Positions 19,208 through 35,673 of a stretch of 64,000 nt of DNA are shown piece after piece. The stretch comes from Prevotella sp. (GTDB lineage: Bacteria > Bacteroidota > Bacteroidia > Bacteroidales > Bacteroidaceae): contig JALFCG010000072.1 in NCBI GenBank assembly GCA_022771265.1, forward strand, positions 1,854 to 65,853. Reading direction: 5' to 3'. Every line of letters starts with the position of its first letter. The first letter of the stretch is position 1. A program made the translations under genes and the position numbers. Below the pieces are notes generated by a model. The model had not been told where the DNA came from. It did no database searches and saw nothing but the letters and a program-made list of their open reading frames with translations.

Positions 19208-19241
19208 GTCAAAATTAATGTGTATTTATCGTATTTTGGCG

Positions 19242-19249: not shown

Positions 19250-19323
19250 CTCATTTTTTTGCAATTGGCGTTCTTTTTGGCTTATTTTCTTCATTTTTTG
19301 TGGTATAAAAACTTTGCCGTGGC

Positions 19324-22300: not shown

Positions 22301-23352
22301 CTGTCAATGAGAGTGCTTGTCACGCAGCAGTCGCCGACCTGGTTTTTGTCGCCCTGCTTGTATCCGGCATATTCAAACCCGAGAGGCTTCTCCGTCTGCA
22401 TGAGCACACCCTTCTGCAGCATGCTGACCCACAGGTTTCCCGCCTTGTCCTCGACGAAGCAGTTCACCTTTGCGTGGCGCAGGTCAACCTCATGGCTGTA
22501 AAGTGGGTTCATCAGCAGCTGTCCCGTGGCAGGGTTCATCACCGCCATTCCTCCTCCGTCAAATCCCACGAGCACATTTCCGCTTCTGGAGGTGTATAGC
22601 GCCGTGACGTGCATGTCGGCAGTCGATGGCAGTGGCTGGAACTTGTCGGCGTGCTTTTCCTTAACCCACACGCCCTTGTCGTTGGTGCCGACGTAGATGT
22701 TGCCATTGAGGTCCTCGCAGATGGATGTCAGTGCGGAGCTCATTGTTCCTTTGTTGAACCACTGCTTCTTTTGCCCTTTCCTCGTGCTCAAGAGTCCTCC
22801 CCTCTCGGTGAGCATCCAAAGCCATCCCTGTGAGTCCTCCATCATTTTCCTTACGCTCCTTACCTCTTTGAGCTCCTTGCACCGGTGTGCCTCAGTGAGG
22901 TTCTTAAGCCTGTAAATTCCGTTGTTTGACGTTCCGATATATACCGTTCCGTCAGCCGTTTCGGCAATGCAGTCCACGAACGAGATAATTTTCTCGCCCT
23001 GATAGCCGTAGAGAGTAAGGTCGTGGAACCGGTCGTCGTAGTAGGCCTGGACTCCTCGTTGGTTGCCTACGAGCAGCACCTTGTCGCTGCGCTGCATGAC
23101 GGTGTTGACATAGTTTGACGACATGCCTTCGCACCCGTCGTTGCCTTTCTTGAACACCTTGAAGTTGTAGCCGTCGTAACGGTTGAGCCCGTTGCGCGTT
23201 GAAATCCAAATAAAGCCGTCATGGTCCTGATAGACATGCAGCGCGAAACTGCTGGAAAGCATCTTGTCGGTGTTGAAGAGCTTGCCCGTCTGGGCTCTCA
23301 CGCCTGCCACCCATGCGAGCAGCAGAAGTACTACATAGAATGTTTTATTCAT
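19324..23352 (-). CDS. hybrid two-component system sensor kinase/response regulator with AraC-type HTH (HTCS)
   Basis: 1342 aa. Order: signal peptide, beta-propeller/Y_Y_Y periplasmic region, TM, HisKA (SHEIRTPM), HATPase, receiver, then HTH_AraC C-terminus. Confidence 0.92.
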   Translation of the reverse strand: MNKTFYVVLLLLAWVAGVRAQTGKLFNTDKMLSSSFALHVYQDHDGFIWISTRNGLNRYDGYNFKVFKKGNDGCEGMSSNYVNTVMQRSDKVLLVGNQRGVQAYYDDRFHDLTLYGYQGEKIISFVDCIAETADGTVYIGTSNNGIYRLKNLTEAHRCKELKEVRSVRKMMEDSQGWLWMLTERGGLLSTRKGQKKQWFNKGTMSSALTSICEDLNGNIYVGTNDKGVWVKEKHADKFQPLPSTADMHVTALYTSRSGNVLVGFDGGGMAVMNPATGQLLMNPLYSHEVDLRHAKVNCFVEDKAGNLWVSMLQKGVLMQTEKPLGFEYAGYKQGDKNQVGDCCVTSTLIDSRGLTWVGTDSDGLYVLDANRRCLRHFDYPYTVLALAEDSQGRIWAGAYMRGLFVIDRSMNAPEHVDVAGLERLDVFDIAIDRQGFAWIATMGHGLIKYDMLTGKAEQFKSNEAAANDRKVNSLVNNYISQLALSSDGQRLYIATTMGLCCYDIRKKSWTNTFGANALLYGNNVRTVAEAPGNILWVGTYDGLFRYDMKTRQTVKMTEDDGLPDNSIAALLADKAGNLWAATDHGLCQAELTTGEVKSCFYADDGLQSNEFSEGAIAQGLTGEIVLGGVGGVTWFNPQKIKQQTWNAEVLLTNLVVNGKDVAAGDKSGFFTVTDKPVLHSNRFSLAYRDNTFAIQLSTLTYGSPEQITYSYSVNNDGWTSLHPGQNELNFSLMPPGTYKFRVKATKNKQESKVKEFTVVVRSPWYRSTVAYLVYMAIIAALIYNFLRQRRQKYQDRLRMQEHKHAEELNEAKIKFFMNISHEIRTPMTLIVAPLMTLIKDDNDPKRVGAYMTIKRNAERILHLINQMMDLRKIEKGKMRMRMRETDIIGFVDDICRMFEYQAKAKNIKFEFIHQDEKINVWIDLSNFDKVVVNLLSNAFKYTPAGGHVEVTVKQDGNYITIDVKDNGEGIPQDMIDKIFERFYQSETRTNDRHFGTGIGLDLTNSLVLLHHGSITAKNNDEGGATFQVTLPLGCAHLKEDEKITQEEPKGNRDSIVNLLEESYQTLPKTEPANPAPATTQKGKRLSIVVVEDDNEIQQYLVNELSPYYKVKAYGNGQDALTAILKDVPDLVISDVMMPVMDGTTLCTRLRNNVNTNALPIVLLTAKSSDEDMLEGLETGADAYIVKPFNIEILKRTVLNLLDSRKIMRNKASGKESQEDKMEHIDMQTADDKLMERVMKVINANIGNAELNVDFIAREVGLSRVHFYRKMKDLTNQSPHNFIRNIRMKEAARLFDNGHQNINEVMYAMGFNNTSSFSTAFKAVYGISPRDYIKDKARETKPQ

Positions 23353-23397
23353 TAGGTTCTTCCCTTAGGTTCAGTTAAAATTAGTTGTACGTGGCGA

Positions 23398-23405
23398 CAA
23401 AGTTA
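23398..23405 (-). promoter_or_regulatory. -7 promoter box TAACTTTG
   Basis: Plus strand reads CAAAGTTA, 46 nt upstream of the HTCS ATG. Confidence 0.55.
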
Positions 23406-23523
23406 CAAAAAAAACCTTATTCGCCAAAGGAATCAAGATTTTTTAACATTCCTGTCCGCTTTCTATCTTCATCTAAAGGAAAAAAATAGTAATTTCGCAT
23501 CGTAAAAGAATAATAACGAAATC

Positions 23524-24420
23524 ATGAAAAAAGTACATCTTCTTATTGCCGTGACTGCCTTGGGCATGACCGGTATCGCCTCCTGCAAGCAGCAAGCCCC
23601 AAAGGGGCAGGAGACGGCAGACAGCATCAGCATTGCATCCAACAACAATACGGTGGAAACGCCCATACCATTCACTTCCGACAGTGTTGCAACGAAGCTC
23701 TCGGGCGAGGGCTACGAATGTAAGGTCGAGGTTGACTATCCCACGTCGAAGGGGCTGCTTGCCGACAGCGTTAGGCAGGCTTTGCTACACGTGCTCAACC
23801 ACACCTCGCCGACAGGAGGCCTGAGCCCGGAGCAACCGCAGACGGCGTTCAAGGGCAAAGCCGGCAACGGGAAAGCCGTGGCTGACTTCTTCGCCAAGGC
23901 GTATGCTGACCAGCTGAAGAAGTCATACGACGAGATCTTGAAGCTCAACGAGGACCGGGAAGCCCCCGCTCCCTACTCGTTCGACATCTCGCTGAAAAAG
24001 TCGTGCGAGACCGGCAAATACGTGACCTACAACGTCTTTTCCTACAGTTATCTTGGCGGAGCCCACGGCTCGTCGATGCAGTACGCGCTCAACATTGCCA
24101 AGTCCACGGGCAAGGCTGTCGGCACGGTCATCGACAACTCCATGACGAAAGCGATGCAAAAGCTCCTTCGCCATGGAGTGGCAGAATATTTCAAGGCGCA
24201 GGGTGAAACCATTGCCGACAAGGACCTCGACGGCCACCTGTTCATCGACAACGGCATCATCCCGCTGCCTGCTTACAATCCGGAATTGACTCCCGAGGGC
24301 CTCCGCTTCGTCTATCAACAGTACGAAATCGGGCCTTATGCCATCGGCATGGTCACCTTCACCGTTCCTTACGACAAGGTGAAGCCGTTCATGACCGGCG
24401 AAGCCCTCGAGCTGCTTTGA
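23524..24420 (+). CDS. lipoprotein, DUF3298/DUF4163-like
   Basis: 298 aa with lipobox GIASC. YLGGAHGS motif is characteristic of DUF3298. Confidence 0.7.
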   Translation: MKKVHLLIAVTALGMTGIASCKQQAPKGQETADSISIASNNNTVETPIPFTSDSVATKLSGEGYECKVEVDYPTSKGLLADSVRQALLHVLNHTSPTGGLSPEQPQTAFKGKAGNGKAVADFFAKAYADQLKKSYDEILKLNEDREAPAPYSFDISLKKSCETGKYVTYNVFSYSYLGGAHGSSMQYALNIAKSTGKAVGTVIDNSMTKAMQKLLRHGVAEYFKAQGETIADKDLDGHLFIDNGIIPLPAYNPELTPEGLRFVYQQYEIGPYAIGMVTFTVPYDKVKPFMTGEALELL

Positions 24421-24421
24421 T

Positions 24422-26164
24422 TCAGCGGGTGAACCTTATCCAGTCGACGTCGAGGAACGCGCCGTCGTTGCTCACCGCCGAGCGGCAGTTGAAATAGCCC
24501 ACCTTGGCACCTATCCACTTGCCTTCCTTGACGGCGAACGGGGTGCCAATCTTCACGTATTTCTTTCCGTCGAGGCTATAGTAGAACTGTGCCGCCGAGG
24601 TGATGGCGTTGGCAACACCCGAACTCTTCACCACCGCGCGCACATAGACGTGAGGCGTGGCGTGGCGCGGCTGCGGTATGTCATCGACGGCATATCGCTG
24701 CGTGTAGGGCTTCTCCTGTTCCGTGAGCGTCACGGGCACCTCAGCCTCCACCGTTTCCTTGCCTCCGTTCTGAGCTTTGGCGCACTTCACGAAGCGCATG
24801 ACACAGCCTTCTTCGGTTGCCACGAACTTTATCGCCGCATAGTCAAGCCCCTTGATGATGAAGCCAGCCTCCTCGCCCTTTTTCTTGTTGGAGGGGTTGG
24901 GGATGAACTGCAGCTTGGAGGTGACGGTGAAGTTCTCGGCCGGGAACTTCTGCATCAGCGTGTTCTGCATGTCGGCGAGGTTCTTGTATCCCTCAGGCTG
25001 CTCGACACCGTAGAGGCGCAGCTTCGACTTCCTGGAGTCGCAGAAGTACCAGTAGTGGCTGAAGGGTCCCTCAAACTGCCATTGCAGTCCGAGGCTTGTG
25101 GAGTCGAACTCGTCGTTCTCTTGCGGCTGCACGCTGCCCGAGGACTTCAGTGCCGGCTTCTTCCATTCCGCCACGGGGTCGCCGCAGCCGTCGCCGTCGC
25201 GGTCGTCGCCGATGACGAGCCAGTCGTCAACCCATCGTGCGGGCTGAAGGTGGACGACGCGTCCATAGGCGTGCTTGTCCTGGAAGTGCAGGAACCAGTC
25301 CTCACCCGACGGCGTGTCAACCCATGCCCCCTGGTGCGGGCCGTTGACTTGTGTTTTTCCCTGAGCCAGCCCTACGTATTCCTCGTAAGGTCCGAAGGGG
25401 TCTCTCGATCGCAGTATGACCTGCCATCCGTATTTCACGCCTCCTGCAGGCGACATTATGTAGTAGTAGCCGTTGCGCTTGTAGAACTTCGTGCCTTCGA
25501 TGGTGGGCTGGTCCTCATGTCCGTCATAGACGATGCGCGAAGGACCGGTGACGGTGGTGCCGTCGGCTGACATCGGTGCGACAAAGAGCACCGACTTCAC
25601 TCCAGCCCTCGACCCTGCACAGCCATGTGAGAGATAGGCTTTCCCGTTGTCGTCCCAGAGCGGGCAGCAGTCGATCATTCCCTTTCCCTTCTTCACGCAC
25701 ACGGGCTTCGACCACGTTCCTGCCGGGTCCTGCGCCTTGGTCATGAACAATCCCTGGTCGGGGTCGCCCCAGTAGATGTAGAACCATCCCTCATGGAAGC
25801 GTATCGCGGGTGCCCACACGTAGTTGCCGTGCTGTATGCGCTTTCGCCAGTCGAGGCTGGTGCCGCGGAATTCGGGCAGCACGGGGTAGTCATCAACGAG
25901 TGCCGCTCCAATGATTTTCCAGTTGACGAGGTCGGTGCTGTGCAGCACCTGCAGTCCCGGGAAGCAGGCGAAGCTCGACGAGGTCATATAGTAGTCGTTG
26001 CCAACCCTGCAGACGTCGGGGTCGGAATAGTCGGCGTTAATCACCGGGTTTCTGTATTTTCCTCCGGGGAGGTTTGGGTTCCACGTCGCTGACTCTTGTG
26101 CCATCGACGCCATCGGCATGCTTCCCAAGGCAGCCGCAAGAAGGAGACTAATCGTTTTTTTCAT
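24422..26164 (-). CDS. glycoside hydrolase family 43 (beta-xylosidase/alpha-L-arabinofuranosidase-like) with C-terminal beta-sandwich domain
   Basis: NPVINADYSDPDVCRVGNDYYMTSSSF is a GH43 N-terminus. I prefer the ATG at 26164 (MKKTISLLLAAALG signal peptide) over the track start at 26212. Confidence 0.9.
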   Translation of the reverse strand: MKKTISLLLAAALGSMPMASMAQESATWNPNLPGGKYRNPVINADYSDPDVCRVGNDYYMTSSSFACFPGLQVLHSTDLVNWKIIGAALVDDYPVLPEFRGTSLDWRKRIQHGNYVWAPAIRFHEGWFYIYWGDPDQGLFMTKAQDPAGTWSKPVCVKKGKGMIDCCPLWDDNGKAYLSHGCAGSRAGVKSVLFVAPMSADGTTVTGPSRIVYDGHEDQPTIEGTKFYKRNGYYYIMSPAGGVKYGWQVILRSRDPFGPYEEYVGLAQGKTQVNGPHQGAWVDTPSGEDWFLHFQDKHAYGRVVHLQPARWVDDWLVIGDDRDGDGCGDPVAEWKKPALKSSGSVQPQENDEFDSTSLGLQWQFEGPFSHYWYFCDSRKSKLRLYGVEQPEGYKNLADMQNTLMQKFPAENFTVTSKLQFIPNPSNKKKGEEAGFIIKGLDYAAIKFVATEEGCVMRFVKCAKAQNGGKETVEAEVPVTLTEQEKPYTQRYAVDDIPQPRHATPHVYVRAVVKSSGVANAITSAAQFYYSLDGKKYVKIGTPFAVKEGKWIGAKVGYFNCRSAVSNDGAFLDVDWIRFTR

Positions 26165-26232
26165 TTGTTTTTTATTTGTTTGGTAAGATTTGTTATCTAT
26201 TTGTCTCAGCATTTCTACTGTCCTTCTCTTTT

Positions 26233-26423
26233 TTGTTCCCCCTCTAAGATAGAGGGGGTGTCACGAAGTGACGGGGGCGTATGACCTTCCAGCAGAAGCT
26301 TACAGCACGAGCCTTTAGCACGAGCTTCCTGCAAAAGCATTTGTCAAGCGAGATAATGCTGACGTTTTCATACTCCCTCCCCCCTTCGGGGACTCCCCCT
26401 ATCTTAGGGGGAGAGCCAAATTA
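26233..26423 (-). mobile_element. MITE-like repeat, copy B (both termini missing)
   Basis: The core aligns with copy C and has 4 central subrepeats. It lies in the 5' leader of the GH43 gene. Confidence 0.65.
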
Positions 26424-26572
26424 GTTATGAGCGCAGAGTGCTAAGACTTGGCATTCGTCTTGACTCCTTAACTTCTTTACTCCTTAACTACCAACTATTT
26501 CCTTTACTTCCGATAGTTGAGTTATATACTTAAGTTTCGCAAGCTGTTAAATGGACAGTCTTCTTTTTTCTG

Positions 26573-26604
26573 CAAAGATACTGCATTTCTTATAAACTGC
26601 CAAA
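26573..26604 (-). promoter_or_regulatory. complete Bacteroidetes promoter TTTG-N20-TATCTTTG
   Basis: On the minus strand, the -33 TTTG is at 26604-26601 and the -7 TATCTTTG at 26580-26573. It points toward MITE copy B and the GH43 gene. Confidence 0.6.
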
Positions 26605-26636
26605 CTTTTTACAGATTATTTTTTCAGGAGCCAACT

Positions 26637-26894
26637 TAACAGAACTTCCCCACCCTTTTCCATGCAGTTGAGTAACTTGTTCCCCCTCTAAGATAGAGGG
26701 GGTGTCACGAAGTGACGGGGGCGTATGACCTTCCAGCAGAAGCTTCCAGCACTAGCCTTCAGCACGAGCTTCCTGCAAAAGCATTTCTCAAGCGAGATAA
26801 TGCTGACGTTTTCATACTCCCTCCCCCCTTCGGGGGACTCCCCCTATCTTAGGGGGAGAGCCAAATTACTGTCATGCGGTGGAGGTGGTCTGAT
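26637..26894 (-). mobile_element. MITE-like repeat, copy C (one terminus truncated)
   Basis: Near-identical to copies A and D in reverse orientation. The terminal GAACTTCCCCACCC inverted repeat is present on one side only. Confidence 0.7.
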
Positions 26895-26929
26895 TTAACT
26901 CCTGAAAAAACTCCTTAACTCCTGAAAAG

Positions 26930-27175
26930 CTAAGTACTGTCTATCGCCTTCTGTTCGGTTGACACTTCGGCGGTGAAGTCGCCTTTCTTCAGGCGGATGG
27001 TCTTGCCGCCGGTGGCCGACTCGATGAAGGAGGGCACTTGCGACAGCGTTGCGAAGGCAAGCAGAAGGCCTACGGCTGTCAGCACACTGGAATCAATGAC
27101 CCCCATCGGTGGGCAGAAGAATCCACCCACGATGAGGAGCACTGAGAGAGTGAGGGTCAGATGAAACACACGCAT
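26930..27175 (-). CDS. small two-TM membrane protein (holin-like topology)
   Basis: 81 aa. Two hydrophobic helices and a charged C-terminal tail. Sits 19 nt downstream of the HU-like gene. Confidence 0.5.
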   Translation of the reverse strand: MRVFHLTLTLSVLLIVGGFFCPPMGVIDSSVLTAVGLLLAFATLSQVPSFIESATGGKTIRLKKGDFTAEVSTEQKAIDST

Positions 27176-27194
27176 GGCTCACAGTCGTTAAGTT

Positions 27195-27878
27195 TTATTC
27201 GCCTATGTCGCCAACGCCGCCTTCATCAGTGGTCCCGCCACCTGACGGGTTGCCGGAGCCACTGTCAGAGCCACTGCCCGAGCCGCTGTCAGAGCCGCTG
27301 CCCGAGCCGCTGCCGGAGTCGCTGCCCGACGGGGTGTCGGCTACGGTGAGGTCAACGGTGGTCTGCCCTGCCTTGATTGCCTTGAGCACGGCAGCCTGTG
27401 CGTTGCGGCTTGCTACGAGGTTGAACTCTGCGTCGGCGAGCAGGTTTTTGAACTCCATGCCCGGCTCCCACATGACGTTGACAGAGGTGATGTTCTGCGC
27501 AGAGAACTTGTCGGCAGTCTCCGCTCCCTTCGAGCTGAGGGTGATGTAGAAGTCGCCGAGGTCGCCCAAGCGTATCTTCTTCCCCTCTAAGAGCTGCTCA
27601 CGCATGCAATCGACGGCGAGGTAGAGGATGGCGGAGATGTCGGCGCGTGAATAGACGGTGCCGTGGGTTGCGATGTGGCGTGCAAACTTCTCGATGGTCA
27701 TCACGTCGGTGTACTGTGCGATAGCGAAGGCGTTCTGCACTTCGGTCTTGACGAGGTCGAGGTCTGCCTGTTCCGGCTCTTTTCCCTCGTTGCGGGCGAG
27801 TTTGATGCGAGCCTTTGCAAGGTTGATTTCGAAGAGGTTGGCGTTGACGCCACGCATTACGATGCTGTAGTTAATCAT
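27195..27878 (-). CDS. HU-like (histone-like) DNA-binding protein with Ser/Gly/Asp-rich C-terminal tail
   Basis: The track start at 27887 is TTG; I use the ATG at 27878 (MINYSIVMRG...). The Bacteroidales HU-like fold region is ...IEKFARHIATHGTVYSRADISAILYLAVDCMREQLLEGKKIRLGDLGDFY. The tail is SGSDSGSGSGSGSDSGSGSGSDSGSG, encoded by a 12-nt periodic DNA repeat. Confidence 0.75.
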   Translation of the reverse strand: MINYSIVMRGVNANLFEINLAKARIKLARNEGKEPEQADLDLVKTEVQNAFAIAQYTDVMTIEKFARHIATHGTVYSRADISAILYLAVDCMREQLLEGKKIRLGDLGDFYITLSSKGAETADKFSAQNITSVNVMWEPGMEFKNLLADAEFNLVASRNAQAAVLKAIKAGQTTVDLTVADTPSGSDSGSGSGSGSDSGSGSGSDSGSGNPSGGGTTDEGGVGDIGE

Positions 27879-28015
27879 GGTTGTCAAAGTGTTTTAGTTG
27901 TTAGTAATCGGTTGGTTTCTCGCTGTGACCTTCCTAGCTTTAACCTATGGCTTCAGGCTGTAATTACTTGTGGCCTCGCCTTGGCATAAGTAGCGGCCGT
28001 TTCCGGTTCACGTTG

Positions 28016-28023
28016 CAAAGGTA
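28016..28023 (-). promoter_or_regulatory. -7 promoter box TACCTTTG
   Basis: Plus strand reads CAAAGGTA, about 140 nt upstream of the HU-like gene. Confidence 0.5.
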
Positions 28024-28123
28024 CGAATTATTTTCTTACGTTCTCCGGTTTTCGCTGAGTTTGTTGGAAAAATGGTGCGACTTTTTTTGCGTGTCAAATG
28101 TTTTTACCTCCGAGGGAGTGGCA

Positions 28124-28166
28124 AAGCGTAACTCGTAACAGTGTAACTCGTGTTTTTCACTGTTAC
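28124..28166 (+). repeat. GTAAC module copy 1 (26-mer + hairpin)
   Basis: Exact AAGCGTAACTCGTAACAGTGTAACTC at 28124-28149. The hairpin pairs GTAACAGTG (28135-43) with CACTGTTAC (28158-66). Confidence 0.85.
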
Positions 28167-28225
28167 GCTTTCACTTAGCCTTATATACATTATTAATAAA
28201 TAATAATTAAATAAGTATAACTCTA

Positions 28226-28249
28226 GGAGTTAAGGAGTTAAGGAGTTAA
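28226..28249 (+). repeat. tandem array (GGAGTTAA) x3
   Basis: Perfect 8-nt repeats containing the 11-mer AGTTAAGGAGT twice. The same 11-mer occurs on the minus strand at 26463, 26479 and 26910. Confidence 0.85.
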
Positions 28250-28274
28250 GACATTTGTTTTGGGAGTTATGTGG

Positions 28275-28317
28275 GTGTAACTCAATTTTTGCAGTTACAC
28301 TGTTACGAGTTACGCTT
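28275..28317 (-). repeat. GTAAC module copy 2 (inverted)
   Basis: Minus strand AAGCGTAACTCGTAACAGTGTAACTG matches the 26-mer at 25/26 positions. It is followed by the hairpin GTGTAACT-N10-AGTTACAC. Its second TAA is the stop of CDS 28303..28977. Confidence 0.85.
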
Positions 28318-28977
28318 TTCGTCCTTTGTCGGGTCAAGCAGGTTGACCATTCGGTCGATGGCGGCTTTCGCCTTCTTCGGGGTCTTCTGCTTGTTCCAGG
28401 AACCAAACTGCCGACTGTCGCTATCGAGGAAATGACTGCCCGTGACTACCCATATCGAGCTGCCTTGCGGTAGGCTGATGAGCAGCTTCTCCTCAAGGGT
28501 CTTGACGAGATAGTAGAGATTGGCCTGCGGTGCCGTCCACTTCACCTTCACCGGGTTTGCCTCTCCCTCGAAGATGGCGTTGAAGTCGTCGGGCTTCGTA
28601 TCCTGGTGAATCCATCCTGCCCTGAGCAACGCCTTGTAAAGCTGCACCAGACGTGTGTAGCCGCCTTCGTGGTTGAGAAAGCGATAGGTGAACACTTCAT
28701 CGACCACACGTGGCTTCAAAGGCGTGCTGCGGCGCTTACGGGGAGCTGACGGCTGTGCGGAAGGCAGCTGTGCGGCTGTCTGCTGTGCGGAAGGCAGCTG
28801 TGCGGCTGGCTGCTGTGCTGCAGGCTCTGTAGCGTAGTTATAGACGTTCTGCACGGCAATGCCTCCGCTCTCGACGTTTCCTATTTCGTATTCGACGTTT
28901 TTCTCGAACACTATTTCCGTTTTAGAGGCGTCAACTCCCAACGCCTTCAGTATTTCGATTTTATCTTCCAGTTTCAT
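28303..28977 (-). CDS. hypothetical protein with Ala/Gln-rich repeat linker
   Basis: 224 aa. A small N-terminal domain, the linker AAQQPAAQLPSAQQTAAQLPSAQPSA (30-nt DNA repeat), then a roughly 140-aa C-terminal domain. No family recognised. Confidence 0.6.
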   Translation of the reverse strand: MKLEDKIEILKALGVDASKTEIVFEKNVEYEIGNVESGGIAVQNVYNYATEPAAQQPAAQLPSAQQTAAQLPSAQPSAPRKRRSTPLKPRVVDEVFTYRFLNHEGGYTRLVQLYKALLRAGWIHQDTKPDDFNAIFEGEANPVKVKWTAPQANLYYLVKTLEEKLLISLPQGSSIWVVTGSHFLDSDSRQFGSWNKQKTPKKAKAAIDRMVNLLDPTKDEKRNS

Positions 28978-29005
28978 AAGTCTTGTCTCTTAGTTTCGTA
29001 TGTGC

Positions 29006-30124
29006 TCAATTTTTCTTCACTCCTATTGCTCCCTGACTGACGTTGGCGATGTAGGACTCGACACTTTGCTCCAACACAAACTGCGCTCCTTGCTGCACGA
29101 CGATGAATCTTGCATCCACGTCCTGCAATCGCTTCTTGAGCTGCGCCCGCGCCTCTGCCCATTTTGGGTCGTCATTGCCGTAGAGTATTTCCATGAGCAT
29201 GTCATAGACGGGCTTGATCTCGTTGTAGCGTGACGTGCTATTCATGCAGTAGTTTACGATTCTGTCCAGTGTGAGAAGTTCCTCAAGCTTGGCGGGCTTC
29301 TTGGATGCTTCCGCTTCAGCGACTGCTTCTGAGGCAACCGGAGCTGCTTCCGGGGCTGCCGAAGCTGCTGCTTCCGAGGCAACCGGAGCTACTGACGGAG
29401 CTGCCTTGACCGCTGCTTTCTGAGCTGCCTTGACCGCTGCTTCTGGAGCAACCGGCTCTTTTTCTGCTGCTGCAATTATCGATGCTTTGGGCACCACTAT
29501 GGCTTCCGCGTTTTTGATAGCCTTTGCAGCCTTTTCCGCTGCTTTCTCTGCCAAGATTTTTTCACGGCTGCTGGCTTTGCTGTGGTTTATGGTCCACTCG
29601 CCGACAGTTACCGGTATTTTGACCGCAGGTGTAAGGTTCACCGTTGTCACCGGTATTTTTACCGCAAGCCTTTCTTTAGCAATACTGTTAATCGCTCGTT
29701 GTATCGACGGTGAAGTCTTTGCCTTCAATGCTAGGTCGGCGGCTTTCTTCCCGCTTTGTGCTCCCTTGTAGGTGGGGTCATAGACAGTGCTGGCTTTCAC
29801 GACTCCGACTGTCACCTGACCGTCAACGTGCTTGCCGTTGGACGTCATAGGCCGATGGTTGTTTTTCGCGCCGTTGACGTAGCGTGCGAGAATGTACTCT
29901 GCAAGCCGCTTGTTGTCGCCTTGACTTCGGATTTGAAAAGTAATCTGACTGATGATGCCAGCGTACTCGCTTGCTAAACGCTGCGAGAACATCAAGTTGG
30001 CAACTCGCTTCATAGCCATTCTGTCCGTCATCGCCCCAAGCAGAAGAGTGGACATTTTCATGATGGTAGGTGTCATGTTCGTCATAACTTCAGGTTTTAA
30101 TAAATTAGTTATAAAAAAGTCCAT
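29006..30124 (-). CDS. hypothetical protein with Ala-rich low-complexity linker
   Basis: 372 aa with an internal AVKIPVT duplication and an A/E/K/P/V-rich linker. The start is uncertain, with several in-frame ATGs in the first 24 codons. Confidence 0.55.
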   Translation of the reverse strand: MDFFITNLLKPEVMTNMTPTIMKMSTLLLGAMTDRMAMKRVANLMFSQRLASEYAGIISQITFQIRSQGDNKRLAEYILARYVNGAKNNHRPMTSNGKHVDGQVTVGVVKASTVYDPTYKGAQSGKKAADLALKAKTSPSIQRAINSIAKERLAVKIPVTTVNLTPAVKIPVTVGEWTINHSKASSREKILAEKAAEKAAKAIKNAEAIVVPKASIIAAAEKEPVAPEAAVKAAQKAAVKAAPSVAPVASEAAASAAPEAAPVASEAVAEAEASKKPAKLEELLTLDRIVNYCMNSTSRYNEIKPVYDMLMEILYGNDDPKWAEARAQLKKRLQDVDARFIVVQQGAQFVLEQSVESYIANVSQGAIGVKKN

Positions 30125-30375
30125 AATCTCTGAACAAGCTCATTGTCAACCACTTACGCTCTGCATCGCGCTCCCGTTCCGACCTTTCTGTATCAATTTT
30201 CGGCACGATTTCGCTTCGATGCCGAAAAAAAATGCAGTATAAGGGTAGAAGCCGTCACACGCAAGGCGAGAGGCCTCCAAGGCGCCAATGGGCTGACGTC
30301 GGGTCGTGTGGCGAGACAAGTCACCTGCTTCTGGTTGCAAAAATAATACTTTTTAATAAACAAACAAAGAAAATT

Positions 30376-30945
30376 ATGAAAAAATTGACTTTCAACCCAA
30401 AATTTCTTGTCAAGCCGTTCAGAAACGGCAGACTTTACCCTTGTTTCGGCACCAGTTTCGACATCACTACCGTCTTGTGCCAGCGAGTGATTAACCTTGA
30501 AGACTACCGCCAGGGCATCTGCGACATGACGGAAGACAAGGCAGAAGAGCTGCGCCACCACCAGCCGGTGTTCTACCTGCAGCAACAGGCTGATGCCTTC
30601 ACCGACAACGGCGACGGGGCAAGGCTACGCCACAGGTGGAACGGCCTGCTGCTCTTCTCAAAGCGCGACAAGAAGTGGACACGCATCACGGTGATGGAGA
30701 ACAGAAAGGAGTGGAACGTGGTGCTTTCATTCGAAGACCCCGACAAGGACCGCTACTGGTTTGTGGTTGACACAAAGGAGACGTCGTTCGACGAGGAGAC
30801 CTTCTGGTGTGACCGGGCGATGTGGAAGGCAAAGCTCGACGAGGACCTCGACAGCGTCACCGCCTACGACTACAGCTACTACGTACGCGCCCTCATGCCC
30901 GAACACTATGACATCGTTGACCGCGAGGTACTGTTTGGAGAATAA
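30376..30945 (+). CDS. hypothetical protein
   Basis: I prefer the ATG at 30376 (MKKLTFNPKF...) within track ORF 30232..30945. A-rich leader; 189 aa; no family recognised. Confidence 0.5.
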   Translation: MKKLTFNPKFLVKPFRNGRLYPCFGTSFDITTVLCQRVINLEDYRQGICDMTEDKAEELRHHQPVFYLQQQADAFTDNGDGARLRHRWNGLLLFSKRDKKWTRITVMENRKEWNVVLSFEDPDKDRYWFVVDTKETSFDEETFWCDRAMWKAKLDEDLDSVTAYDYSYYVRALMPEHYDIVDREVLFGE

Positions 30946-30950
30946 ACTCA

Positions 30951-31242
30951 ATTGAACTTTCCCACCCTTTTAGAATAGCATTACAATATGGTATTATCAG
31001 AGCACCTCCACTGCATGACAGTAATTTGGCTCTCCCCCTAAGATAGGGGGAGTCCCCCGAAGGGGGGAGGGAGTATGAAAAACGTCAGCACTATCTCGCT
31101 TGACAAATGCTTTTGCTGGAAGCTCGTACTGGAAGCTTCTGCTGGAAGGTCATACGCCCCCGTCACTTCGTGACACCCCCTCTATCTTAGAGGGGGAACA
31201 AGTTACTCAACTGCATGGAAAGGGGGTGGGAAAGTTCTGTAA
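30951..31242 (+). mobile_element. MITE-like repeat, copy D (full length, 3 central subrepeats)
   Basis: Terminal inverted repeats GAACTTTCCCACCC / GGGTGGGAAAGTTC. Flanked by TAAACTCA / TAAACTTA. Inserted between two same-strand genes of the accessory block. Confidence 0.75.
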
Positions 31243-31268
31243 ACTTAAACCACTAAAAAAAAACGACC

Positions 31269-31589
31269 ATGTACAAGAAAAAATTCCACAACGTCAGCCT
31301 TACATGCATGCTGCAGGGCGAGACAGAAGGCACACTGGAAAAGTGCCGCCACGGAGTGTTGACAAAGACCAACGACGGATTCCGCTTCGAAGAGTCGGTG
31401 AAGAGAACGAAATACGCTCCCAACCCGCAACTCTTCTCAGGAGACCACGTCAAACTCACACGCCTGAAAAACGGCAACTACCGCATCAACGTCAGGGAAA
31501 TCGACGCATCGACCATCACCGACGCCAACGCCCTCGCCTTCAGCATCTACTGCGAATTACAAACCGCCTACAGAACCATCGTATTATGA
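31269..31589 (+). CDS. hypothetical protein
   Basis: 106 aa. ATGA overlap with the downstream ATPase gene suggests coupling. Confidence 0.5.
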   Translation: MYKKKFHNVSLTCMLQGETEGTLEKCRHGVLTKTNDGFRFEESVKRTKYAPNPQLFSGDHVKLTRLKNGNYRINVREIDASTITDANALAFSIYCELQTAYRTIVL

Positions 31590-33001
31590 AAAAACCAGAA
31601 TCAATAGAAAAGAAAAGACGGCCCTCACTCACGGGGGCCGACTTCCCACCGGCAGTGCGCGTGTTCTGGGAAGGAGCACCCGACCAGTTCAAGAACGCAA
31701 GCGTGCTGGCTGCCATCACCTGCTACTGCGCACTCGGCACAAGGCTCAGGGCACGCTACGTCTATGACATCGACCTGCACGCACTGCTGCTGCAAGTGCT
31801 GATCATCGGAGAGCCTGGATCGGGAAAGTCGTTCACAAGGTCGATAGTAAAACAGCTGATGAGACCAATACGCATCAAGGACCAGGAGATGAAACGACTG
31901 GAACAGGCATACGCCGAACTCAAACGCACAATGGCGAAAAACAAGCAGCTGCCCGACGAACCCCTCACCGCCACTCGCATGGTGCAGACCATCACCAAGG
32001 CGAAACTCGTCAAGCGAGCCGACATGTTCGTAAGGAAATACGGCGAGACTCTTGCCTTCTTCTTCTTCTCGGAAGAGCTCTCGACCATGACCGAGTCAAA
32101 CAAGCGAGCCTTCGCCGACCTTAACACCATGGACCGCCTTGCCTACGACCTCGGAGCCGAATTCTCCTCCGACACCCTCTCTGACGCAAGCTACAACGCC
32201 GACGTTGACATCATCTACTGCAGCCTCTTCTGCGGCACGGAGAACGCGCTCAACGACTATATCAACAAGCGGGCGGTGGAAGGGGGCAACTGCACAAGAA
32301 AGGTCATCGTGCACATCGACGAGGACCTCATGGGAGAAGACGCTCCCGTGTTCCGCCAACAGACCGAAGAGGAGCGACAAGCCGTGGAAAAAGCCGTCAA
32401 CATGCTCATGGCTGAAACCTACACCGACGACGACCTGCTGCAGCCAGTACACGAGATACCCATGGAATGGATCGACACGGCTGTAAAGAAATGGTGCGCA
32501 CAGAAACGGCAGGAAGTGCTCAAGACCGGGTCAAGAGCCCTCAACTGCTTCTACAAGCGAGCATCGGTGTCGGCATTCCGCATGACCGCACTCATCTACC
32601 ACCTATGGGGCGAGGACAACGACAAGGACGCAACCGACAACATTCAGAAACGGTGCATTCGCTTCTACCGCTACATGGCACAGTTCATACTCGACGGACT
32701 CTTGGCAAAATGGGGAAGGCAGTACGAAGTGCTGCACAAAGGCGACGTGCAGGACGACGGCAACCGAGTCACCCTCTTCGACCAGCTCCCCGACCGCTTC
32801 AGCCGCGACCAGCTGCGCGAACTCATCGTCAAGCTCGACCTCTCGTCACCCGACCGCATCTTCATCGCAAAATGGAAAAAGATGAAACTGGTCAACCAGC
32901 CTGACGAGAAACAGGAAATCTACTACAAAACAAATCCACAACAAAAAAACCAACCATCATGCAACCCACCGACATCAACCGACTCCGGGGGCTGCCAATA
33001 G
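31586..33001 (+). CDS. P-loop NTPase, putative replicative helicase (DUF3987-like)
   Basis: I use the ATG at 31586 (MKKPESIEKK...); the longer track ORF from 31100 reads through MITE copy D. Walker A is IIGEPGSGKS and Walker B-like is FFFFSEE. Immediately upstream of, and overlapping, a primase gene. Confidence 0.65.
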   Translation: MKKPESIEKKRRPSLTGADFPPAVRVFWEGAPDQFKNASVLAAITCYCALGTRLRARYVYDIDLHALLLQVLIIGEPGSGKSFTRSIVKQLMRPIRIKDQEMKRLEQAYAELKRTMAKNKQLPDEPLTATRMVQTITKAKLVKRADMFVRKYGETLAFFFFSEELSTMTESNKRAFADLNTMDRLAYDLGAEFSSDTLSDASYNADVDIIYCSLFCGTENALNDYINKRAVEGGNCTRKVIVHIDEDLMGEDAPVFRQQTEEERQAVEKAVNMLMAETYTDDDLLQPVHEIPMEWIDTAVKKWCAQKRQEVLKTGSRALNCFYKRASVSAFRMTALIYHLWGEDNDKDATDNIQKRCIRFYRYMAQFILDGLLAKWGRQYEVLHKGDVQDDGNRVTLFDQLPDRFSRDQLRELIVKLDLSSPDRIFIAKWKKMKLVNQPDEKQEIYYKTNPQQKNQPSCNPPTSTDSGGCQ

Positions 33002-33915
33002 AAGAGGTGGCAAAAAGGCTTGGCGTCGGCATCTCACGGCACCAGGCCCTTTGCCCCTTCCACGACGACAGCCACCCCTCGCTACACTTCAGCGAGAAAA
33101 GAAACACATTCAAGTGCTTCGTATGCGGAGCCCACGGCAGCTCCATCGACCTCGCCATGCGCGTACTCGCGAAAAACTTCACCGAGGCTTGCCAATGGCT
33201 TGCCGACGAACACAACATCATCATCGCCACAACGCCTACAACCACTGACACGGAAAAGAAAGGCAACACCACCTTCGACCCGGCACGCTACCTGCCATAC
33301 ATCGACCACCCGACACTAAGCCCCAAGGCACGGCAATTCCTCTACGACCAAAGGGAAATCGACCCAAGGGTGGCACAATGGTGCAGGCTCAGCTCATGGA
33401 AAGACAAAAAAGGCGTCAACTGGCTGTTCATACCCTACTTCGACATCGAAGGAAAACTCATAGGGGTGCAGAACCGAAACCTCGACTACCGCAAGGACAA
33501 GCCCGACGCCACCGGAGCACCACGATTCCGCTTTCCACGAGGATGCAAGTGCGCCATCTACAACCTGCCCGTGCTGAAAATGCTCAAGAAAGACGAGCCC
33601 CTATTCATCACAGAAGGTACTTCCGACTGCTGGGCGATGCTCTCAAGCGGACACAAGGCTATTGCAATACCAAGCGCAACGGCGCTCGGAAGGGACGGAC
33701 GCATGACGCTCAGGCAATTCACCGACAACTACGGACCGCTAAACCTGCACATGTATCCCGACGCCGACATCCCCGGCGAAAAACTGTACCTCGAACTCGT
33801 GGCGCTGGCAACCGAACTTAAGTCGTGCATCACACGACACTCGCTGCCCTACGGATGCAAGGACTTCGCCGAATACTTCATCAGCAAGCATCAAAACAAC
33901 ATTCAACTATCTTAA
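32959..33915 (+). CDS. DNA primase, CHC2 zinc finger + Toprim domain
   Basis: 318 aa. Zinc finger is CPFHDDSHPSLHFSEKRNTFKCFVCGAHG. Toprim motifs are FITEGTSDCWAM and YPDADIPGE. Confidence 0.85.
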   Translation: MQPTDINRLRGLPIEEVAKRLGVGISRHQALCPFHDDSHPSLHFSEKRNTFKCFVCGAHGSSIDLAMRVLAKNFTEACQWLADEHNIIIATTPTTTDTEKKGNTTFDPARYLPYIDHPTLSPKARQFLYDQREIDPRVAQWCRLSSWKDKKGVNWLFIPYFDIEGKLIGVQNRNLDYRKDKPDATGAPRFRFPRGCKCAIYNLPVLKMLKKDEPLFITEGTSDCWAMLSSGHKAIAIPSATALGRDGRMTLRQFTDNYGPLNLHMYPDADIPGEKLYLELVALATELKSCITRHSLPYGCKDFAEYFISKHQNNIQLS

Positions 33916-33928
33916 ACTCAACAAGACC

Positions 33929-34801
33929 ATGGACATAACAATTAAAAGAACAACAACCAACCTTCTGTTCACCACAGGGGAAATATTCATCAACGGCAAG
34001 CGACAGGCCTTCACCGTCGAACCTACGCAGACAATGCTGCCCAACGGCATCTACACCGTCAGATACGCTCAAAAGGCTAAGCTGGAACGAAGACTGCAAA
34101 TCGTAGGCAAAAACAAACAGGCTGACGGCACAAAAACGGAAAGACAACACAAAGGATGGGCTATCGGAGCGGTCAACTCGTGGATTGACGCAAGGAAGAC
34201 AAAAACGATTGGCATTGGCGAACCTCTCATTCCGGGAGTGGTGACGCAATCGGCAAAAGTGACAAGGCGAATAACCAACAGGCTCGAGAAATGCAAGCAA
34301 AGAGGAGAAACCGCCACTCTCGTCATCACAGGACTAAAGGAACTAAAATGCGTGCCACGCTTCTGGAACCGCTTCACAAGCATCCTCACAACAGCTGCAC
34401 TCACCGCCACACTGGCACTGACGCTCACGGCATGCTCCTCACAACGCCACTTGCAGCAGGACATCGGCAGGTCAAGCCGCGACTCCGTCAGCATGAGAAC
34501 ACTACGCTACGACTCCATCTTCATCTACGAAAGCCACACCACCGACTACCGTCATGCCGCCGACACCTCCATGACCAACGACGGCATACGCGTCGATACC
34601 GTCTTCGTGAACGACAAAAGCATCGAATACCGCTACCGCATCAAGAAAGACACCGTCGTCAAGACGGCTATCGACACGATACCTGTCGTGCACGACGTAG
34701 TGACCGTAAAGGAAGTGGCACGCACACCTCTGCTGACCCAAATGCTCGCCATCGTCGGCATATTCGCATTGGCTATAGGCGCAGTGAAATACATCAAATA
34801 A
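33929..34801 (+). CDS. hypothetical two-part protein: N-terminal DUF5675-like domain, internal lipoprotein signal, C-terminal TM anchor
   Basis: 290 aa. An internal in-frame GTG at 34352 is followed by PRFWNRFTSILTTAALTATLALTLTAC (lipobox). C-terminal TM is LLTQMLAIVGIFALAIGAV. Confidence 0.55.
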   Translation: MDITIKRTTTNLLFTTGEIFINGKRQAFTVEPTQTMLPNGIYTVRYAQKAKLERRLQIVGKNKQADGTKTERQHKGWAIGAVNSWIDARKTKTIGIGEPLIPGVVTQSAKVTRRITNRLEKCKQRGETATLVITGLKELKCVPRFWNRFTSILTTAALTATLALTLTACSSQRHLQQDIGRSSRDSVSMRTLRYDSIFIYESHTTDYRHAADTSMTNDGIRVDTVFVNDKSIEYRYRIKKDTVVKTAIDTIPVVHDVVTVKEVARTPLLTQMLAIVGIFALAIGAVKYIK

Positions 34802-34825
34802 CAAAACATTAACTCACAAAAAAAC

Positions 34826-35272
34826 ATGACCAAACTCACAACTCACTTCACACTGGCGGAGTTCACACGCTCCGCCACTGCCTTGTCAAAAGGCATCGAT
34901 AACACGCCATCCAACGAGGCAATAGCCAACATGCGCCACCTCTGCGAGGAAGTGCTCGAACCGCTCAGGGATGCATTCGGAGAGCCCGTGACCGTGTCAA
35001 GCGGCTACCGTTCGAAGACGCTGAACGCCGCTGTTGGTGGAAGTCCTACAAGCCAGCACATGCGTGGTGAGGCTGCCGACATAGCTCCAACCGCCACTGC
35101 CGAAGGGAAGAAGCGGCTGAAGGAATGGATGAGATGGATTATCGACAACACCGACTTCGACCAGTGCATCTTCGAGCGCAACTCATCCGGCACCTGTTGG
35201 ATTCACGTCTCAGCCTGTCGTAACCCGTCGCGCAACCGCCACCACGTCATCTCCTCGCTCAAGAAAGCGTAA
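34826..35272 (+). CDS. peptidase M15 family (D-Ala-D-Ala carboxypeptidase/endolysin-like) metallopeptidase
   Basis: 148 aa. SGYRS...SQHMRGEAADI...WIHVS zinc-ligand pattern of Peptidase_M15A-type cell-wall hydrolases. Confidence 0.85.
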   Translation: MTKLTTHFTLAEFTRSATALSKGIDNTPSNEAIANMRHLCEEVLEPLRDAFGEPVTVSSGYRSKTLNAAVGGSPTSQHMRGEAADIAPTATAEGKKRLKEWMRWIIDNTDFDQCIFERNSSGTCWIHVSACRNPSRNRHHVISSLKKA

Positions 35273-35307
35273 CTCGTAACAGTGTAACTCAAAAAAAACA
35301 GTTACAT
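35265..35307 (+). repeat. GTAAC module copy 3
   Basis: Exact 26-mer at 35265-35290. Its first TAA is the stop of the M15 peptidase. The hairpin is GTGTAACT-CAAAAAAAAC-AGTTACAT. Confidence 0.85.
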
Positions 35308-35493
35308 ATTGAACTTTCCCACCCTTTTAGAATAGCATTACAATATGGTATTATCAGAGCACCTCCACTGCATGACAGTAATTTGGCTCTCCCCCTAAGG
35401 GTCATACGCCCCCGTCACTTCGTGACACCCCCTCTATCTTAGAGGGGGAACAAGTTACTCAACTGCATGGAAAAGGGTGGGGAAGTTCAGTTA
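35308..35493 (+). mobile_element. MITE-like repeat, copy E (internal deletion of about 105 bp)
   Basis: Both termini are intact and the centre is missing, with the junction at CCCCCTAAG|GTCATACG. Flanked by TTACATAT on both sides. Confidence 0.75.
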
Positions 35494-35502: not shown

Positions 35503-35542
35503 CAAGTTGACAAGTTGACGAGTTGACAAGTGGACAAGTGGA
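35503..35542 (+). repeat. tandem array (CAAGTTGA-like) x5
   Basis: Units are CAAGTTGA CAAGTTGA CGAGTTGA CAAGTGGA CAAGTGGA, with 8-nt period. Confidence 0.85.
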
Positions 35543-35630
35543 CAGCATGTCACATATATGGGAATTTTGAGTCAGTTACACAAAAAAGACAGAGAGATGC
35601 TGACCATCACGGTTCATCCGTGCGTCATAG

Positions 35631-35673
35631 AAGCGTAACTCGTAACAGTGTAACTCGAAATTTTCAGTTACAC
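35631..35673 (+). repeat. GTAAC module copy 4
   Basis: Exact 26-mer at 35631-35656 plus the hairpin GTGTAACT-CGAAATTTTC-AGTTACAC. Not preceded by a credible gene. Confidence 0.85.

Follow-up and report, generated by a model that had tools for sequence, protein, structure and literature searches.

An integrase-less helicase-primase cassette of Bacteroidales with opposed iteron-like repeats, a candidate satellite-like replicon

Introduction

Why should a helicase-primase operon, a gene for an HU-like protein and genes that resemble a phage lysis module stand together among the cellular genes of a Prevotella chromosome? The question is raised by positions 26930-35307 (the block) of a 64,000-nt stretch of Prevotella sp. 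assembly GCA_022771265.1 (contig JALFCG010000072.1, 1,854-65,853 of the forward strand), which is called the window here at its full length. Judging from the sequences of the block and its relatives, we propose, with a probability of about 0.45, that it belongs to a family of chromosomally anchored, integrase-less, satellite-like replicons of Bacteroidales that carry a lysis module, a family that would be widespread and undescribed. The argument turns on short DNA repeats that face each other across an AT-rich spacer between the HU-like gene and the helicase operon, and on the recurrence of this layout, with different repeat words, in related cassettes.

Sequences and searches

The window proteins were searched by profile against Pfam, NCBIfam, PHROG and PADLOC. 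Relatives were collected by a scan with a helicase alignment of one genome per species, which gave 76 loci; open reading frames (ORFs) of related loci were called, clustered and compared with the window proteins. The related loci are numbered L010-L088 (79 loci). Four contigs of the window's own species (L001-L004) were chosen by an identical helicase and align to the window at 96-99% identity; L089 and L090 are contigs of sister species.

Repeat modules and a candidate origin

The 23-nt string GCGTAACTCGTAACAGTGTAACT occurs exactly four times in the window (28126+, 28315-, 35267+ and 35633+), where zero copies are expected, and four of the five GTAAC sites of the window fall in 14% of its sequence. 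The four copies belong to modules A to D (Table 1). Modules A and B form a 26-nt perfect inverted repeat, the opposed pair, and A and C/D are 26-nt direct repeats 7.1 kb apart, made of the same elements as the iteron-like sets. Between the triple repeats of the pair, positions 28150-28292 are 71% AT against 49% for the window, with 95% AT in the richest 40-nt stretch. The spacer, which was aligned with 12 other loci, contains CCTTATATA, a degenerate form of the family box GCGTACCTTATTATA, and three copies of AGGAGTTA.

The window modules fold as an 8-bp hairpin (z-scores -1.4 to -4.1) and differ among themselves in hairpin spacers and loops, and the modules of other species have z-scores near 0. 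Because there is no stable RNA hairpin in other species, the modules look like double-stranded protein-binding sites that act at the DNA level. Intrinsic terminators were considered and rejected, as the copies of other species are unfolded and a generic terminator scan stayed at background. The A/B inverted repeat was also considered as an invertible promoter or shufflon; no flipped variant was found in the four same-species contigs and there is no recombinase nearby.

Nearly every cassette has its own version of the module, in which a pentamer occurs three times with a spacing of 6-8 bp; a TTTCATTGAAAATCA-like box often comes after it. The word is GTAAC in the window, L010, L012, L013, L015, L016, L033, L035 and L037, GCAAC in L018-L021, L023 and L045, GTGAC in L029-L032, GAAAC in L011 and L014, TTAAC in L044, GGTCA in L051 and L052, and GTGAA in the Segatella copri complex. 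The word varies with lineage; the layout is conserved, two modules facing each other over 115-185 bp between the HU-HIG gene (the HU-like gene of the window) and the rightward helicase operon. Under a strict definition, an opposed pair lies upstream of the helicase in 30 of the 54 loci with at least 4 kb of upstream sequence and in 0 of 270 shuffled loci. The spacers average 69% AT compared with 52% for the loci, and have 40-nt stretches at 80-97% AT. The GCGTACCTTATTATA box is present in 32 of the 79 related loci, where 2.9 would be expected; both clades of the family have it, although their helicases share only about 35% identity. Single modules stand on the coding strand directly at stop codons, and 35 of 65 loci have a triple repeat from -40 to +120 nt relative to the stop of the primase gene.

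In the S. copri complex, 16 loci have two to three GTGAA modules each, 15 of them exactly three (the pair and one at the primase stop), and none was found in the 204 kb of their flanks. In two S. copri loci the opposed pair (L072 1519-1735, L075 2259-2475) and the module that marks the end of the primase gene are about 10-11 kb apart, compared with about 6 kb for the rest of the complex, a distance that indicates 4-5 kb of extra cargo between pair and helicase. Loci L072, L060 and L081 are carried by the chromosomes of S. copri HDD04, HDE04 and G8, respectively. This family-wide module, with its species-specific word and opposed-pair architecture, is new here; the first-pass annotation had listed the four GTAAC modules of the window, all of which we confirmed, and did not recognize them as family-wide elements in an origin-like opposed arrangement.

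Proposed replication and alternatives

As a replicon, the cassette would function as follows. The pentamers would act as iterons, to which the MCM-like helicase, a putative initiator, would bind through its fast-evolving C-terminal domain, and it would load itself to the left and right of the AT-rich spacer. The HU-like protein encoded nearby would bend the DNA and aid melting; proteins of the HU/IHF type beside origins are classical accessories of this step. The primase, translationally coupled to the helicase, would then prime synthesis. Since neither an integrase nor an att-type junction is evident, replication would begin either in situ, as a local amplification, or once a trans-acting factor, for instance from a helper phage, had excised the element. 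Finally, the hydrolase, spanin-like and small transmembrane (TM) genes would open the envelope and release the amplified DNA. In line with binding by the C-terminal domain, helicase residues 344-471 evolve faster than the ATPase core and, core identity allowed for, are 6 points more similar between loci that share the word; the zinc ribbon of the primase shows no word-linked similarity effect.

A number of observations weigh against this proposal. The effect at residues 344-471 is weak and confounded by phylogeny, positions that track the word as specificity determinants amount to 0-4 scattered columns in helicase, primase, HU and the 106-aa and 290-aa proteins (p106, p290), and the helicase profile has no sequence similarity to solved Rep structures. 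The strict pair was found in just 30 of the 54 eligible loci; it lies 0.4-3.6 kb upstream of the helicase in most loci and 7.5-8.8 kb upstream in four, and only single half-sets follow the primase. The pair also lies within a divergent promoter region, so that it could serve as an operator. GTAAC repeats are not strictly confined to the block, because nine of them, with an 8-bp period, stand outside it at 17010-17075 (-), directly 3' of a gene of the biotin/lipoate-ligase family (17061-17822, -) whose stop codon lies inside the array. At this array, one of the miniature inverted-repeat transposable elements (MITEs) of the window adjoins, and sister-species contig L090 has no intergenic space at the corresponding place. 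As to the lysis module, no Cys or His is invariant in the DUF5675-like domain among 29 family members, so that a peptidase role is at most putative. No rearranged, excised or inverted forms at the modules were found in the four same-species contigs, all of which are co-linear. Lastly, a pure origin model does not predict single modules behind unrelated cargo genes: six to ten same-strand modules part unrelated cargo in L018 and L021 (an ars-like operon, Abi_2, ORF6N), the nucleotide homology of related loci (L021 with L018 and L020) has a tendency to break off shortly after a module, and L016 has, compared with L037, an inserted unit of 1.8 kb made up of a gene and a module.

These last features speak for a rival reading, in which the modules are portable recombination or boundary sites of an integron- or shufflon-like array that the helicase-primase pair serves or rides along with. 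It would also account for modules that begin within about 4 nt of stop codons, on the strand of the gene, and for the genes of the 224-aa and 372-aa proteins (p224, p372), which L016 has on the other side of the operon from the window. We consider it unlikely, however: no recombinase family recurs in the flanks, the variable spacers and loops of the window copies are contrary to tyrosine-recombinase exchange, the four same-species contigs offer no rearranged variants, and the opposed pair with its conserved internal box is left unexplained.

Another possibility, to which we attach little weight, is that the cassette never excises and that its resident origin fires in situ on phage attack or stress, amplifying the cassette and the neighboring variable genes, the capsule, defence and cargo blocks that these repeats delimit, before the cell lyses. 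Neighbor cells could then take up the amplified DNA by transformation or through a passing phage. In a variant of this idea, the repeats would double as capture sites and the locus would be a helicase-primase-driven analogue of an integron.

Distribution and chromosomal setting

The core of helicase, DnaG-type primase and DUF5675-like gene, with the HU-HIG gene upstream on the opposite strand, was found in 76 species-level genomes of Prevotella, Segatella, Bacteroides, other Bacteroidaceae, Parabacteroides, Cryptobacteroides and Mediterranea, which bears out the earlier suggestion of an uncharacterized Bacteroidales cassette that links helicase-primase, HU-like and cell-wall hydrolase genes. 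The order helicase-primase-DUF5675 is co-linear in both clades. In clade 1 the helicase is mostly 51-78% identical to that of the window (42% in L048), the core consists of p106, helicase, primase and DUF5675-like protein, and a separate lipoprotein with a C-terminal TM segment and an M15_3 peptidase are often added. Clade 2 is the S. copri complex, with helicases 32-39% identical to that of the window; it keeps helicase, primase, DUF5675 and HU-HIG together with other uncharacterized proteins, and its cassette stands between the same housekeeping genes in about 15 species. M15 or amidase genes are present in part of the family only, many members being without them. One metagenome-assembled genome carries two copies, L039 and L044.

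The flanks of the window block share no synteny with any of the 76 related loci. In L010-L012 the cassette lies amid glycosyltransferase and epimerase genes and toxin-antitoxin pairs. A census of 134 flanking ORFs of 41 related loci gave AAA_15/AAA_21 and AAA_14/DUF4143 ATPases as the most frequent families, and polysaccharide genes, Fic, ResIII and other families with two to three ORFs each; defence-type and cargo genes in the flanks comprise AAA_15/21, Abi_2, HipA, Fic, RhuM and ars-like genes. No integrase family with two or more members and no recurring recombinase family was found among these flank ORFs, and no reverse transcriptase family among the window or flank ORFs. AAA_14/DUF4143 ATPase genes recur beside cassettes of both clades in 13 loci (for example L016, L067 12939-14285 and L027 200-1537). 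L016 has two of them (1011-2360 and 13498-14919), one of which makes up, together with a module, the 1.8-kb insertion found on comparison with L037; upstream of the AAA_14/DUF4143 gene stand three direct repeats of 20 nt, AAAAATCGTGTTTTGGTGCA.

In sister-species contig L090, whose TPR protein is 86% identical and whose neighbors are 88-97% identical to those of the window, an HTCS gene follows directly after the TPR gene; DUF3298, GH43 and the block (about 23.5-35.7 kb) are missing, and between the two genes there is nothing but a terminator and a promoter of the Bacteroides type. In L089 (TPR 90% identical) there is no block beside the TPR gene either. The block is accessory, as had been supposed, since these sister species are without it at the TPR/TonB locus. 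Identical borders in all relatives, which the first-pass annotation had named as part of the outcome that would refute its reading, were not what we found: the flanks are non-syntenic and two sister-species contigs have no block. An 8-bp tandem repeat ((C)AAGTTGA, at least 5 copies) lies 3' of the TPR gene both in the window (35503-35544) and in cassette-free L089 (2737-2790), so that it is older than the cassette insertion.

In phage and plasmid collections the helicase is nearly absent. No relatives were found in the 2.9 million contigs of IMG/VR, a tblastn search of 72,556 PLSDB plasmids gave no match, and among 50,697 GenBank phage records there was a single relative, MT838840.1 (L009), an unverified and unannotated faecal scaffold of 5.5 kb. 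This scaffold carries S. copri-type cassette genes and, at 1490-2497, what looks by eye like an IS110-type transposase; it may be chromosomal DNA in a virome preparation.

Such a distribution might suggest a module domesticated by the host and no longer replicating by itself, in which the hydrolases, spanin-like and TM proteins would remodel or open the envelope for vesicle formation, DNA release or autolysis, helicase, primase and HU would serve repair or regulation, and the repeats would control the module as operators or terminator-like sites. The purifying selection described below, the stable position with the same flanks in about 15 species of the S. copri complex, the lack of IMG/VR and plasmid relatives (with one unverified scaffold among phage records) and the site of the pair in the divergent promoter region between HU and operon are all in its favor. 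We nevertheless regard domestication as distinctly unlikely, because cassettes stand at non-syntenic places in different genera, are missing at the locus in two sister-species contigs, can be present in more than one copy per genome, have neighbors typical of island cargo and carry M15 or amidase genes in only part of the family, and because a helicase-primase pair beside iteron-like sets round an AT-rich spacer is the signature of a replicon.

Variation within the species

The entire block is present in contigs L002, L003 and L004. In L002 it lies between GH43 and the TPR/TonB genes; in L003 and L004 it adjoins TPR/TonB, and these two contigs end left of the gene for the 81-aa protein. Ratios of nonsynonymous to synonymous polymorphism (pN/pS) within the species are 0.07 for the 189-aa protein (p189), 0.09 for HU, 0.13 for M15, 0.21 for the primase, 0.23 for p290, 0.46 for p224 and 0.51 for p372; the value of 0 for the helicase is an artefact of choosing the contigs by helicase identity. 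The genes of HU, p189, M15, primase and p290 (0.07-0.23) are thus under purifying selection within the species.

These values bear on the idea of an inert, decaying remnant of a prophage or satellite that has lost its integrase and virion genes. Phage-like replication and lysis genes, the lack of integrase and structural genes and the MITEs inserted in the block would fit a remnant. Yet all ORFs are intact and keep their catalytic motifs, 76 species share the integrase-less layout, even where helicase identity is as low as 32%, most genes have pN/pS values of 0.07-0.23, and the modules and the internal box are conserved across clades, so that decay is extremely improbable. The first-pass annotation had offered "a domesticated or decayed phage or satellite-like replicon"; of this, the satellite-like replicon stands as the best functional analogy and the decay does not, given an intact cassette in 76 species and purifying selection.

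The MITE copies of the window (190-300 bp, with internal palindromes; Table 1) had been taken to frame the block. Their presence was confirmed, but the copies vary between window and L002, which makes them independent polymorphic insertions and not borders of an element. One is inserted directly after module C; the copies at 30951 and 35307 are missing from L002, so that the MITE family is, or was recently, mobile. No transposase for it was found in the window. Where the window has two MITEs (26233-26894), between GH43 and the 81-aa gene, L002 has a gene for a 97-aa Polbeta/NTP_transf_2 protein (5078-5371), so that the left cassette edge has a small spot that varies between strains. In the MEGAHIT contig L001, positions 9370-9654 join window position 16971 to 30955 through a MITE, from pyrH to the right half of the block, skipping 14 kb with PurH, HTCS, GH43 and the left half of the block; this join is either a MITE-mediated deletion or an assembly chimera.

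Genes of the cassette

All ten ORFs listed for the block by the first-pass annotation are present at their coordinates (Table 1), and both helicase overlaps (ATGA and 43 nt) and the tandem-repeat linkers were likewise confirmed. Six ORFs had been described as without a family; this holds for the proteins of 81, 224, 372, 189 and 106 aa, whereas the 290-aa protein has a sub-threshold match to DUF5675.

Table 1. Coordinates of genes, repeat modules and MITE copies in the window
Feature	Position	Strand	Remarks
MITE copies	16666-16971, 26233-26423, 26633-26894, 30951-31247, 35307-35493		190-300 bp
81-aa protein, two hydrophobic segments	26930..27175	-	downstream of HU gene; holin-like by topology only
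HU-HIG DNA-binding protein, SG-rich tail	27195..27887	-	PF18291 9.8e-21; TIGR01201 above cut-off
Module A, three GTAAC words and hairpin	28123..28165	+	left half of opposed pair
AT-rich spacer	28166..28274		putative unwinding region
Module B	28275..28318	-	right half of opposed pair; p224 stop codon inside
224-aa protein (p224)	28303..28977	-	short N-domain, AQ/P-rich repeat linker, conserved C-domain of about 130 aa
372-aa protein (p372)	29006..30124	-	A/E/P/V-rich repeat linker
189-aa protein (p189)	30376..30945	+	first gene of rightward operon; no family match
106-aa protein (p106)	31269..31589	+	4-nt ATGA overlap with helicase start
DUF3987 (SF6, MCM-like) helicase, putative initiator	31586..33001	+	PF13148 3e-7, 30.3 bits (cut-off 27)
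DnaG-type primase	32959..33915	+	CHC2 PF01807 1.4e-16; Toprim_2 1.2e-3, below cut-off
290-aa protein (p290)	33929..34801	+	DUF5675-like domain (about 1-140) fused to lipoprotein with C-terminal TM
M15_3 zinc peptidase, endolysin-like	34826..35272	+	PF08291 3e-22, 79 bits; phrog_894 2e-38
Module C	35264..35306	+	M15 stop codon inside
Module D	35631..35673	+	right cassette edge; also about 190 bp past module C in L002

The helicase has the Walker A motif GEPGSGKS and a Walker B-like FFFFSEE, and neither GEPGSGKS nor the acidic pair that follows FFFFS varies among 12 sequences; it has 756 detectable relatives. About 125 conserved residues lie C-terminal to the PF13148 match and have no Pfam match at E<=5. 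DUF3987 proteins have been classified as superfamily 6 (SF6, MCM-like) helicases with a winged helix-turn-helix at the C terminus, regularly tied to primases (PMC4889955), and the DUF3987 protein of a Bacteroidota mobile element unwinds DNA and binds its primase (PMC11724360). In the window the primase gene overlaps the helicase gene by 43 nt, and it follows the helicase in 68 of the 79 related loci. The protein matches phrog_47 (9e-28, 98 bits, residues 5-240), and its score with the PADLOC profile RTasDnaG-like (4e-58, 195 bits in two stretches) exceeds that with cellular DnaG (TIGR01391, 79 bits).

The primase profile brings up an anti-phage, abortive-infection reading, in which foreign DNA entering the cell would be sensed or acted upon by primase and helicase, with the lysis genes bringing about cell death. 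The best primase profile is indeed defence-associated; DnaG-type primases are partners of the UG6, UG24 and UG29 reverse transcriptases (PMC9226505), interception of incoming DNA has been suggested as a role of HU-HIG proteins (PMC5499826), and the flanks are rich in defence-type genes. This reading is very improbable all the same, since there is no reverse transcriptase or nitrilase partner nearby, the other nine proteins match no PADLOC model and a conserved iteron-like DNA architecture is foreign to known defence systems.

Upstream of the helicase, p106 lies directly 5' in 25 of 41 clade-1 loci and has 833 detectable relatives. Its AlphaFold2 (AF2) model (predicted local distance difference test score, pLDDT, 87) has six strands and one helix and no fold match in PDB or BFVD. 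Homologues of p189 stand at the same position in six loci. Neither p189 nor p106 matches Pfam, NCBIfam, PHROG or PADLOC, whole or by domain, with Pfam domains taken down to E<=5. PDB profile searches with alignments of p106, p224, the helicase and the DUF5675-like domain gave no credible match.

Downstream of the primase, the DUF5675 (PF18925) match of p290 (1e-4, 22.5 bits) lies under the cut-off of 26.7, and the orthologue in L062 reaches 47.1 bits (2.5e-12); a DUF5675-like domain follows the primase in 48 loci of both clades. The protein had been described as a lipoprotein with a C-terminal TM anchor, which is true of its C-terminal half, the N-terminal half being DUF5675-like. The lipoprotein half is a stand-alone gene in L010, L013, L040 and L044 and also in P0123/P0124 (cluster C38), and inside p290 a lipoprotein signal of typical form would begin at an in-frame GTG at 34352. 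Modeled by AF2 from an alignment of five sequences, p290 has a pLDDT of 36. DUF5675 has been proposed as a C82-like lysin domain (bioRxiv 10.64898/2026.04.11.717860, 2026 preprint). The M15 peptidase has the zinc-ligand motifs SQHMRGEAAD and WIHV in its translation; in L010 an Amidase_2 gene takes its place. The second half of the cassette looks like a lysis module, in which the M15 assignment is solid and the spanin-like lipoprotein and the two-TM 81-aa protein are assigned from their architecture alone.

On the minus-strand side, the 81-aa protein has no match in the four libraries; homologues with 51-64% identity adjoin the HU gene or keep the same offset 5' of the helicase in L042, L044 and L046, and in L012 its position is taken by a 34-aa DUF6486 protein. 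The window HU-HIG protein has the clade's traits, a match to the modified HU domain and an SG-rich tail in the translation, the tail being encoded by a 12/24-nt tandem repeat at 27251-27329. The clade was defined by a modified HU domain and a glycine-rich C-terminal tail, with almost no conserved gene linkage reported (PMC5499826). In ten other species, copies 70-75% identical lie on the opposite strand 1.4-6.4 kb (mostly about 2 kb) 5' of the helicase. The low-complexity linkers of the HU, 224-aa and 372-aa proteins are all encoded by tandem DNA repeats (Tandem Repeats Finder). Homologues of the p224 type are present in 16 loci, with no match for p224 in the four libraries or in PDB; p372 has no family match in the four libraries, nor do its domains in Pfam at E<=5. 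In two species the p372 C-domain is fused to a p224-type C-domain (L029 10360-11139, L032 12576-13235), which suggests that the two proteins act together.

The ten block proteins gave no Pfam or PHROG match to capsid, portal, terminase or tail genes. They also gave none to terS, cpm, ppi or a helper-responsive repressor, although the five proteins without a family could hide divergent analogues. Among the window ORFs examined there is no integrase, transposase or virion gene, as had been noted earlier for the block. Those outside the block are cellular, non-mobile genes: ArgRS, EPSP synthase, DNA polymerase III alpha, PSD, pyrH, the biotin/lipoate-ligase-family protein, PurH, an HTCS regulator, GH43, TPR, TonB-ExbBD, RibBA, LptFG and MacB-type efflux sets. 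The left-hand neighbors of the block are glycan-utilization genes (HTCS, GH43) and not a polysaccharide-synthesis locus. A scan of 25.5-36.5 kb with Rfam gave nothing meaningful.

Implications

Prevotella, S. copri and Bacteroides dominate the human and ruminant gut, and no phage-satellite family was found for them in the literature searched. In that literature, the coverage of which is incomplete, we likewise found no description of the unit of HU-HIG, DUF3987 and DnaG-type primase, of its repeats or of Bacteroidales satellites. The cassette has hundreds of detectable relatives, located in variable islands with capsule and defence genes, and its components are usually annotated singly (HU family, DUF3987, primase, peptidase) with no explanation at the level of the unit. 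Read as a SaPI-like origin, after the Staphylococcus aureus pathogenicity islands (SaPIs), with lineage-specific iterons and a dedicated HU-like protein, these co-occurring uncharacterized genes would become a testable replicon. The module pattern provides a DNA signature for finding further members and a candidate origin for Prevotella genetic tools. The cassette also makes one ask how an element of this kind is maintained and disseminated with no integrase of its own; in-situ firing with lysis, if true, would be an integrase-free route of gene transfer in the dominant gut phylum.

Comparison with known systems

The cassette loci share with integron arrays a short repeat after several unrelated same-strand ORFs (L018, L021). 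They differ in having no IntI/attI/Pc arrangement and in a repeat that is a triple pentamer with a box, mostly unstructured as a single strand, in place of an attC palindrome, and no exchange was observed. Compared with a phage lysis cassette, the block has an M15_3 protein of a PHROG endolysin family, a lipoprotein-TM protein and a small two-TM protein; a lipoprotein with a C-terminal TM is the architecture of a unimolecular spanin. Unlike a phage lysis cassette, these genes are not contiguous, the small TM protein being at the far end behind HU, and the type of hydrolase varies.

Among Bacteroidales, B. thetaiotaomicron has the BT0706 amidase and BT0709 DUF3987 genes (PMC10434189), and amidase "phage insertions" have been described in capsular polysaccharide loci of P. 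distasonis (PMC9409006). Compared by description, such HU-like/DUF3987 (VirE)/amidase groups of Bacteroides and Parabacteroides, whose co-occurring genes can be seen in annotation tables and which often adjoin capsule loci, have the same gene combination as the cassette. No origin-like repeats are reported for them, and the window cassette, unlike these groups, is not beside a polysaccharide-synthesis locus. We also take them to use primases of the AEP type (VirE/BT4734-like) and not of the DnaG type.

In satellite P4, the alpha protein unites primase, helicase of superfamily 3 (SF3) and origin binding in one polypeptide, and ori and crr, sets of short repeated binding sites several kb apart, flank the replication gene; P4 also has integrase, immunity and capsid-size genes. 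The cassette resembles P4 in its grouped replication functions and its repeat sets at separate places, and differs in that its proteins are separate.

By its gene content the cassette is not a member of the SaPI or P4 families, as it has no integrase and no recognizable packaging or repressor genes, and by the profile and helicase searches above it is neither a prophage nor a plasmid replicon. In particular, it is without the integrase, the Stl-type repressor, terS and the capsid-remodelling genes of SaPIs and other phage-inducible chromosomal islands (PICIs), and it has a DnaG-type primase, cell-wall hydrolase genes and a Bacteroidota host. The SaPI origin is built from iterons of five or six nucleotides, which flank a central AT-rich region in equal halves, with two or more per side in opposite directions; they are island-specific, and the Rep that recognizes them, a self-loading helicase related to MCM and encoded beside a primase, does so through its winged-helix C-terminal domain (PMC9371898). 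This origin lies directly downstream of rep, whereas the pair of the cassette lies upstream, by a dedicated HU-like gene, with extra single sets behind other genes. What the cassette does have in common with SaPIs and PICIs is, in sequence architecture alone, a primase gene beside an MCM-like helicase that is a candidate initiator and opposed iteron-like groups round an AT-rich region, and further a repeat word that differs between elements, a gene set free of virion genes and a cargo of accessory and defence genes.

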